Positions 6,974-8,583 of a stretch of DNA of 64,000 bases are shown piece by piece; the stretch's first letter is position 1, and every line of letters starts with the position of its first letter. The notes under the pieces were generated by a model. It worked only from the letters and a program-made list of their open reading frames with translations, made no database searches and was not told the DNA's origin. The DNA lies in the NCBI GenBank assembly GCA_026396285.1, contig JAPLXB010000022.1:9506-73505 (forward strand), given 5' to 3'. A program made the translations under genes and the position numbers. This stretch comes from Candidatus Micrarchaeota archaeon (GTDB taxonomy: Archaea > Micrarchaeota > Micrarchaeia > Norongarragalinales > JAPLXB01).

Positions 6974-8583
<1,610 letters not shown>

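Follow-up and report, generated by a model that had tools for sequence, protein, structure and literature searches.

A predicted 30-nt bulge-helix-bulge intron in the 530 loop of a Micrarchaeota-like 16S rRNA gene

The archaeal splicing endonuclease EndA has as its substrate the motif called bulge-helix-bulge (BHB), in which a 4-bp helix lies between two 3-nt bulges and cleavage takes place after the second of the three bases of each bulge. Introns of the BHB type, among them ORF-less hairpins of less than 50 nt, are well known from archaeal rRNA; the site at 16S position 526 appears to be uncatalogued, and no description of an intron at this position was found in the full-text literature searched. 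Short (<50 nt), hairpin-forming BHB introns, such as Pog.S1205, were described in the 16S rRNA of Thermoproteales, Desulfurococcales and Aigarchaeota, and 13 loci were catalogued: 374, 548, 722, 781, 803, 901, 908, 919, 978, 1093, 1205, 1213 and 1391 (Jay & Inskeep 2015, PMC4496867). Insertions in Micrarchaeota 16S were noted in ARMAN-2, Mia14 and ARM-1 (PMC5498576, PMC8784108), and BHB and group I introns in DPANN rRNA genes (PMC6125680). As far as the available text of these three reports goes, PMC5498576 states that introns are present and gives no site, PMC8784108 describes a long ORF-containing insertion at 1093 whose splicing was called uncertain by its authors, and none of the three mentions a 530-loop micro-intron. 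The epsilon2 type of EndA, which has a broad substrate specificity, was previously known from no hosts other than Ca. Micrarchaeum (ARMAN-1/-2) and the related Mia14 (PMC5829648).

The window, that is, the whole 64-kb stretch of DNA that was analysed, contains an archaeal rRNA operon with the following features.

8582 to 6972, minus strand: 16S rRNA gene, 1611 nt against the 1478 positions of the archaeal SSU covariance model RF01959, 1372 bits
8099 to 8070, minus strand: 30-nt ORF-less insert in the 530 loop, after E. coli C526 (predicted mini-intron)
6776 to 6704, minus strand: tRNA-Ala gene, part of the archaeal rRNA operon
6451 to 2803, minus strand: 23S rRNA gene, 3649 nt, RF02540, 2233 bits

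The earlier note had reported a 30-nt insert at 8070-8099 in a 16S gene of about 1610 nt, together with a hairpin and a flanking near-repeat. The sequence and the coordinates of the insert were right, the gene length agrees with the measured one, and the hairpin and the near-repeat (GCCGGUAA/GCGGUAA) are both real in the sequence. In the cmscan alignment, GUGCCAGCCGC and GCGGUAAUAC are separated by 31 bases against one model position, which means exactly 30 extra bases. In the RNA sense, the gene reads GUGCCAGCCGCC-AGCGCUCUCCUCACGGGGAGUCGCCGGUAA-GCGGUAAUAC, with the insert between C526 and G527; the numbers 526 and, below, about 1079 are those we take from our own alignment to the 515F site and the E. 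coli sequence. The insert is built as A-GCGCUCUCC-UCAC-GGGGAG-U-CGC-CGGU-AA and forms by itself a stable hairpin of -13.6 kcal/mol. The near-repeat arises because exon 1 has two GCC units (GCC-A-GCC-G), the first of which pairs with the CGGU of exon 2 and the second with the CGGU of the insert. Excision of 8099 to 8070 joins GUGCCAGCCGCC to GCGGUAAUAC and gives GUGCCAGCCGCCGCGGUAAUAC, which is the model consensus; this is the sole register that does so. With its 30 nt, the insert cannot hold a homing-endonuclease ORF, either of the LAGLIDADG or of another type, and cmscan placed no group I or group II intron family at gathering score anywhere in the window.

The exon-intron junctions, whose folding had been proposed as a check for a BHB, fit a canonical hBHBh' motif in the exact register that restores the conserved sequence. 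Its elements are given below, where ^ is the predicted cleavage position.

8064 to 8110, minus strand: complete hBHBh' motif, spanning both exon-intron junctions
8102 to 8105 with 8072 to 8075, minus strand: central helix H, exon GCCG (G521-G524) with intron CGGU, 4/4 paired
8099 to 8101, minus strand: 5' bulge CC^A (C525, C526 and the first A of the insert)
8069 to 8071, minus strand: 3' bulge AA^G (two A and G527)
8090 to 8098 with 8076 to 8085, minus strand: inner helix h', 3+6 bp with one bulged U, loop at 8086 to 8089
8107 to 8110 with 8064 to 8067, minus strand: outer helix h of 4 bp, U516-C519 with G529-A532, the native helix-18 stem

The inner helix begins directly after the bulge with GCG/CGC, followed by CUCUCC/GGGGAG. 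The outer helix is preceded by an A520.C528 mismatch (8106/8068), which adjoins the 3' bulge. It should be mentioned that the minimum free energy (MFE) fold of the junction region is in a slightly different register and is not a BHB. The energy model penalises 3-nt bulges; the BHB conformer was therefore evaluated explicitly. It has -24.5 kcal/mol against -28.3 kcal/mol for the MFE fold, a gap of 3.8.

The same junction was sought in 185,579 GTDB species genomes with the pattern GTGCCAGCMGCC-N{15,45}-GCGGTAAYAC, and at least 64 loci were obtained. At least 47 of the matched loci are archaeal 16S genes with an insert of 26-45 nt at the C526/G527 junction. Their hosts are mostly Micrarchaeota (Micrarchaeia, Anstonellaceae), with seven Aenigmatarchaeota and a few Woesearchaeota or Nanoarchaeota. 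Seventeen bacterial matches were dropped as chance occurrences in coding DNA or as artefacts resembling 515F/806R primer dimers (L012, L016, L035, L061). Since the search pattern fixed the exon flanks, conservation of the exons among these homologues is not independent evidence.

The 47 inserts and that of the window were compared. These 48 inserts have lengths of 26-45 nt, 45 of them are unique, and all start with A. All but two end with CGGUA[A/C/U], the exceptions being L019 (CGGCAC) and L029 (CUGUUA). In every one of the 48, helix H is paired 4/4 and the 3-nt bulges are CC^A and A[A/C/U]^G (UA^G in L029). In this last insert, a bacterial-like exon GCAG goes with an intron CUGU: the C-to-A change in the exon is offset by a G-to-U change in the intron, which turns a CG pair of helix H into an AU pair. 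Covariation was examined in 42 distinct junction constructs. Paired cells amount to 91.3%, against 30-50% when the partners were slid by 1-3 columns, and the covariation score of 0.304 (0.105 in shuffles) was reached by none of 500 shuffles. Changes on both sides are found in all seven tested h' pairs, and in eight pairs overall. The interior of the insert is of variable length and changes more rapidly than the exons, with an identity of 0.84 where the flanking exons are at least 97% identical, and its identity tracks host relatedness (Spearman rho 0.57). This drift, together with the tracking of the host, fits mostly vertical inheritance, in which the splicing motif would be the only constraint on the spacer.

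Further inserts of the operon were defined by comparison of the window with Rfam models and with the rRNAs of relatives, and each was then tested for a BHB within ±10 nt. A loose operon-wide BHB scan did not discriminate (686 matches against about 606 in shuffles); as it was uninformative, the tests were confined to alignment-defined inserts and the random rates were measured. Six further inserts have a strict BHB at the alignment-predicted length, for which the random rate is about 0.001 per register.

7476 to 7429, minus strand: predicted AT-rich 16S mini-intron of 48 nt that follows about G1079 in the GUGA tetraloop of h35; cmscan segment of 49 bases; H GCCG/CGGU, bulges UG^A and AG^A, h' 12 bp
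5649 to 5606, minus strand: predicted 23S mini-intron, 44 nt, LSU nt about 803-846; H GUCU/GGAC, bulges AA^G and AG^C, h' 10 bp
4694 to 4641, minus strand: predicted 23S mini-intron, 54 nt; H CAGU/ACUG, bulges AC^U and AA^A
4456 to 4336, minus strand: predicted 23S mini-intron, 121 nt; H GCAG/CUGU, bulges UG^A and AA^A, h' 9 bp
3266 to 3123, minus strand: predicted 23S intron, 144 nt; H GAGU/GCUC, bulges AC^A and AA^G, h' 7 bp
3032 to 2938, minus strand: predicted 23S intron, 95 nt; H AGGC/GUCU, bulges AU^A and AA^C, h' 10 bp

The 1079 site, which the 16S intron loci catalogued in 2015 do not include, is filled in 7 of 18 aligned DPANN 16S genes (L011, L015, L023, L044, L049, L060, L063) and empty in the other 11. 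Helix H at this site is altered to fit each exon: with an exon GGUGCGA it is GUGC/GCAC, whereas L044 has GCCG/CGGC. These relatives were compared by a MAFFT alignment, since the regular expressions tried before were too strict. For the 5606-5649 insert, 44 nt was chosen against the MAFFT estimate of 41 nt, and the spliced hairpin has the same length as that of L019. The 3123-3266 insert lies inside the sarcin-ricin loop, at AGUAC^GAGAGGAAC, with 153 bases in cmscan against 9 model positions; like the 530 loop, this is a functional site of universal conservation. The junction of the 2938-3032 insert is GAAGGCAU^CUAAGGAC, with 98 bases against 3 model positions.

The 5606-5649 and 4641-4694 inserts have an exact 16-mer in common (AAAAGCUUCACCAAAA) and the same arm composition, with a U-rich 5' arm and an A-rich 3' arm. 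The 16S-1079 insert is more loosely similar to them (GAAAGCCGUUCACUGAAAG). Judged from these sequences, the three look like a paralogous family within one operon; the family is absent from the 68 fetched loci. Two more inserts, one in 16S V2 (8372-8392, minus strand, about 21 nt) and one at 23S nt about 1915-1955 (4497-4537, minus strand, about 36-41 nt), gave no BHB even with relaxed criteria and are probably ordinary expansions. The 23S gene is about 660 nt over the model and is still about 200 nt over without its five introns; it may contain more inserts beyond the mapped ones. Neither this surplus in 23S nor the 48-nt insert at 7429-7476 had been listed in the earlier note.

Candidate BHB motifs were also seen in the processing stems that flank both genes on the minus strand. 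That around 16S (about 8620/6959) reads UUCU UG^C ... GGAA GA^A, and that around 23S (about 6478/2716) reads UCAU GA^A ... GUGA AA^A.

The V4 region of 16S and a tRNA gene of the same window have to be considered together.

7973 to 7933, minus strand: V4 insert, 41 nt, at the tip of helix 21 in 16S
31472 to 31594, plus strand: tRNA-Lys(UUU) gene with a non-canonical D-arm intron of 48 nt at 31496 to 31543

A second hairpin in V4 had been placed at about 7925-7968 by the earlier note and taken as a plain insertion. The hairpin is real, its position has to be shifted slightly to that given above, and it is more likely another intron. It fails the strict BHB test. In the exact predicted register, however, a relaxed BHB is formed, at a random rate of 1.8e-4: helix H is GCCU/AAGC with one C.A mismatch, the bulges are AA^A and AA^C, h' has 5 bp and the outer helix 7 bp. 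The tRNA-Lys(UUU) gene was found by ARAGORN only when 31496 to 31543 was removed, which left a canonical cloverleaf, and its Rfam score is only at threshold; both are due to the non-canonical intron in the D arm. The V4 insert and the tRNA-Lys intron have in common a core of about 36 nt that is about 85-90% identical, and this motif occurs nowhere else in the window. The relaxed BHB and this likeness mean that the V4 insert is probably an intron too, paralogous to that of the tRNA, which suggests that an intron has passed between genes for a tRNA and an rRNA. Once the three inserts are taken out, the 16S is 1492 nt.

At a distance of 28 kb from the 530-loop insert, the window encodes an enzyme that would be expected to act on such motifs.

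36904 to 35753, minus strand: epsilon2-type (three-unit) RNA-splicing endonuclease EndA, 383 aa, assigned by Pfam and by a match to 4fz2_A

Pfam assigns to this protein two tRNA_int_endo stretches and a tRNA_int_endo_N domain. It aligns over its full length with PDB 4fz2_A, the EndA of ARMAN-2 (E=3.6e-130), and keeps the equivalents of the catalytic Y236/H251/K282 and of the loop residues Y160/K161, as these residues of the epsilon2 enzyme are defined in PMC12397907. An identical 383-aa product is called in the Logan assemblies of SRR20698646 and SRR20698647. The ORF listed for this gene (37696 to 35753, 647 codons) is over-extended; the true start codon of the gene is the ATG at 36904.

Other genes of the window were noted as well. 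Kae1/TsaD, Sua5 and a small Bud32/RIO-like kinase form an adjacent trio at 14150-16466 (minus strand), the t6A tRNA-modification machinery. A 1986-aa ORF lies at 19853-25813 (plus strand). Two type IV pilus/archaellum-like assembly clusters, each with a T2SSE ATPase and two T2SSF membrane proteins, are at 45556-48990 and 55411-59735 (plus strand). Along with them, a KaiC-like ATPase is encoded at 49064-49861, a class III signal-peptide protein at 59809-60345 and a VWA-domain giant at 40308-43877.

The assignment of the genome as Micrarchaeota-like is approximate: the spliced 16S has only about 73-80% identity to the fetched DPANN 16S genes, so that the placement rests mainly on the epsilon2 EndA and on the intron shared with L021. 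In a metagenome search for the spliced junction with the helix-18 flanks of this organism, four genomic contigs (4.7-35 kb) were found that share these flanks and have an uninterrupted 530 loop. Two of these contigs, L066 and L068, of about 80% 16S identity, are without the 526, V4 and 1079 inserts. This is a polymorphism of presence and absence among genomes; the contigs are neither transcripts nor evidence of splicing. The 16S genes of the relatives range from 1526 to 3025 nt, which means that the intron load differs greatly among DPANN species.

In the fetched loci, DPANN 16S genes were seen to have inserts at many more conserved sites, some of which appear to be known Thermoproteales loci (374, 781, 908, 1093, about 1205/1213 and about 1391, in our own approximate numbering). 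In L011, L018, L019, L063 and L064, inserts of 462-804 nt occupy the classical intron positions 908, 1093, about 1205/1213 and about 1391 in the same numbering.

Taken together, the 530-loop insert is very probably a tiny archaeal BHB intron that is cut by the endonuclease encoded in the window. The earlier note had suggested a short ORF-less intron of the splicing-endonuclease type, and this reading is supported by the BHB, its covariation, the EndA gene, the six sister inserts with a strict BHB and the intronless relatives; from these observations we infer cleavage, ligation and their timing at this site. In the pre-rRNA, the exon GCCG (G521-G524) would pair with the intron CGGU to form the 4-bp helix between the bulges CC^A and AA^G, with the native helix-18 stem (516-519 with 529-532) outside helix H and the intron hairpin inside. 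The dimeric epsilon2 endonuclease would recognise this geometry and cut between the second and third base of each bulge. The tRNA/RNA ligase RtcB would then join C526 to G527 and circularise the 30-mer, and this ligation would recreate the canonical 530 loop that is needed for decoding.

The same BHB evidence applies if the insert is excised without religation of the exons, the mature 16S being then broken at 526/527, with base-pairing and proteins keeping the pieces in place. This is very unlikely. It is favoured by the result that no RtcB ligase gene was found among the ORFs scanned within the 64-kb window, but the window is a small part of the genome, and RtcB is, to our knowledge, nearly universal in archaea. 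The products of archaeal BHB cleavage are normally joined by this ligase. Furthermore, a nick between C526 and G527 would strike the decoding site, within the pseudoknot of the 530 loop, and eight such sites in the operon would leave the rRNAs in many pieces.

Religated excision also seems to fit better than an unusually placed expansion, which the earlier note had offered as its alternative. In that case, the mature 16S of this lineage would carry an extra hairpin in the 530 loop. Unusual rRNA expansions do occur in DPANN and Asgard archaea, and the stability of the isolated hairpin would suit a retained element. The site, however, is in the invariant functional core and not in a variable region, and across the 48 inserts it is exactly the BHB geometry at the junctions that is kept, whereas the sequence and the length of the loop drift freely. 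In addition, relatives with identical helix-18 flanks are without the insert, and the host encodes a matching endonuclease. A retained expansion is thus disfavoured to the point of being highly improbable. As for an assembly or chimera artefact, or a decaying rRNA pseudogene, the source is apparently a metagenome assembly and rRNA regions are prone to misassembly, but the two rRNA genes match their models over the full length (1372 and 2233 bits), removal of every insert cleanly restores the conserved sequence, and the junction is filled in at least 47 independently assembled archaeal genomes, so that the insert is neither an assembly artefact, as the earlier note had allowed, nor a chance feature, and the probability of this explanation is negligible.

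The two paralogous families, one made up of the D-arm intron of tRNA-Lys with the V4 insert of 16S, the other of the two 23S introns, lead to a wider proposal, which we put forward as speculative and on balance unlikely: BHB mini-introns may actively copy themselves between stable-RNA genes without a homing endonuclease and colonise ribosome cores, and the 530-loop intron may act as a maturation checkpoint. Copying might proceed, for example, by reverse splicing via EndA/RtcB, followed by reverse transcription or recombination. The colonised cores would be the 530 loop, h35 and the sarcin-ricin loop. Retained across several DPANN phyla, the 530-loop intron would keep the pre-30S from decoding until EndA acts.

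The predicted intron splits the 515F/519R site (515-533) after 526, so that genomes that bear it should be missed or under-counted in V4 amplicon surveys. This expected blind spot covers at least 48 genomes (at least 47 GTDB species representatives and that of the window), mostly Micrarchaeota and Aenigmatarchaeota, and rRNA callers and classifiers may likewise fail to treat their 16S correctly. Introns in the 530 loop and in the sarcin-ricin loop would tie the ribosome function of reduced genomes to the tRNA-splicing endonuclease. With eight interruptions of the rRNA operon, a tRNA that bears an intron and the gene of the endonuclease, the 64 kb make a compact system for the substrate range of epsilon2 EndA. 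The apparent paralogy between the intron of a tRNA and the insert of an rRNA is of relevance to the way in which BHB introns spread.

Among the known systems, the short introns of PMC4496867 are similar to the 530-loop insert in that they are ORF-less, shorter than 50 nt, fold into a hairpin with a BHB core and lie in conserved stretches at universal primer sites. Their hosts belong to the TACK group, whereas the host here is a Micrarchaeota-like member of the DPANN, and the site is filled across several DPANN phyla; none of the 13 loci of that catalogue corresponds to the position after C526. The rRNA interruptions of Micrarchaeota, as far as they are described in the available text of PMC5498576, PMC8784108 and PMC6125680, have the same host range at the phylum level. 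The BHB motifs of archaeal pre-rRNA processing stems are alike in enzyme and motif, but they release whole rRNAs, whereas the 530-loop BHB would remove an internal 30-mer and require ligation of the exons. The pre-tRNA introns of ARMAN-2 / Ca. Micrarchaeum have the same 4-bp helix, two 3-nt bulges and cleavage between bases 2 and 3 (PMC3239211, PMC12397907). The EndA of the window is of the same type as that of ARMAN-2, to which it corresponds over the full length of 4fz2 with the Y/H/K triad and the Y-K loop residues kept. The substrate in ARMAN-2 is tRNA, whereas the substrate predicted here from the sequence is the decoding loop of the rRNA.
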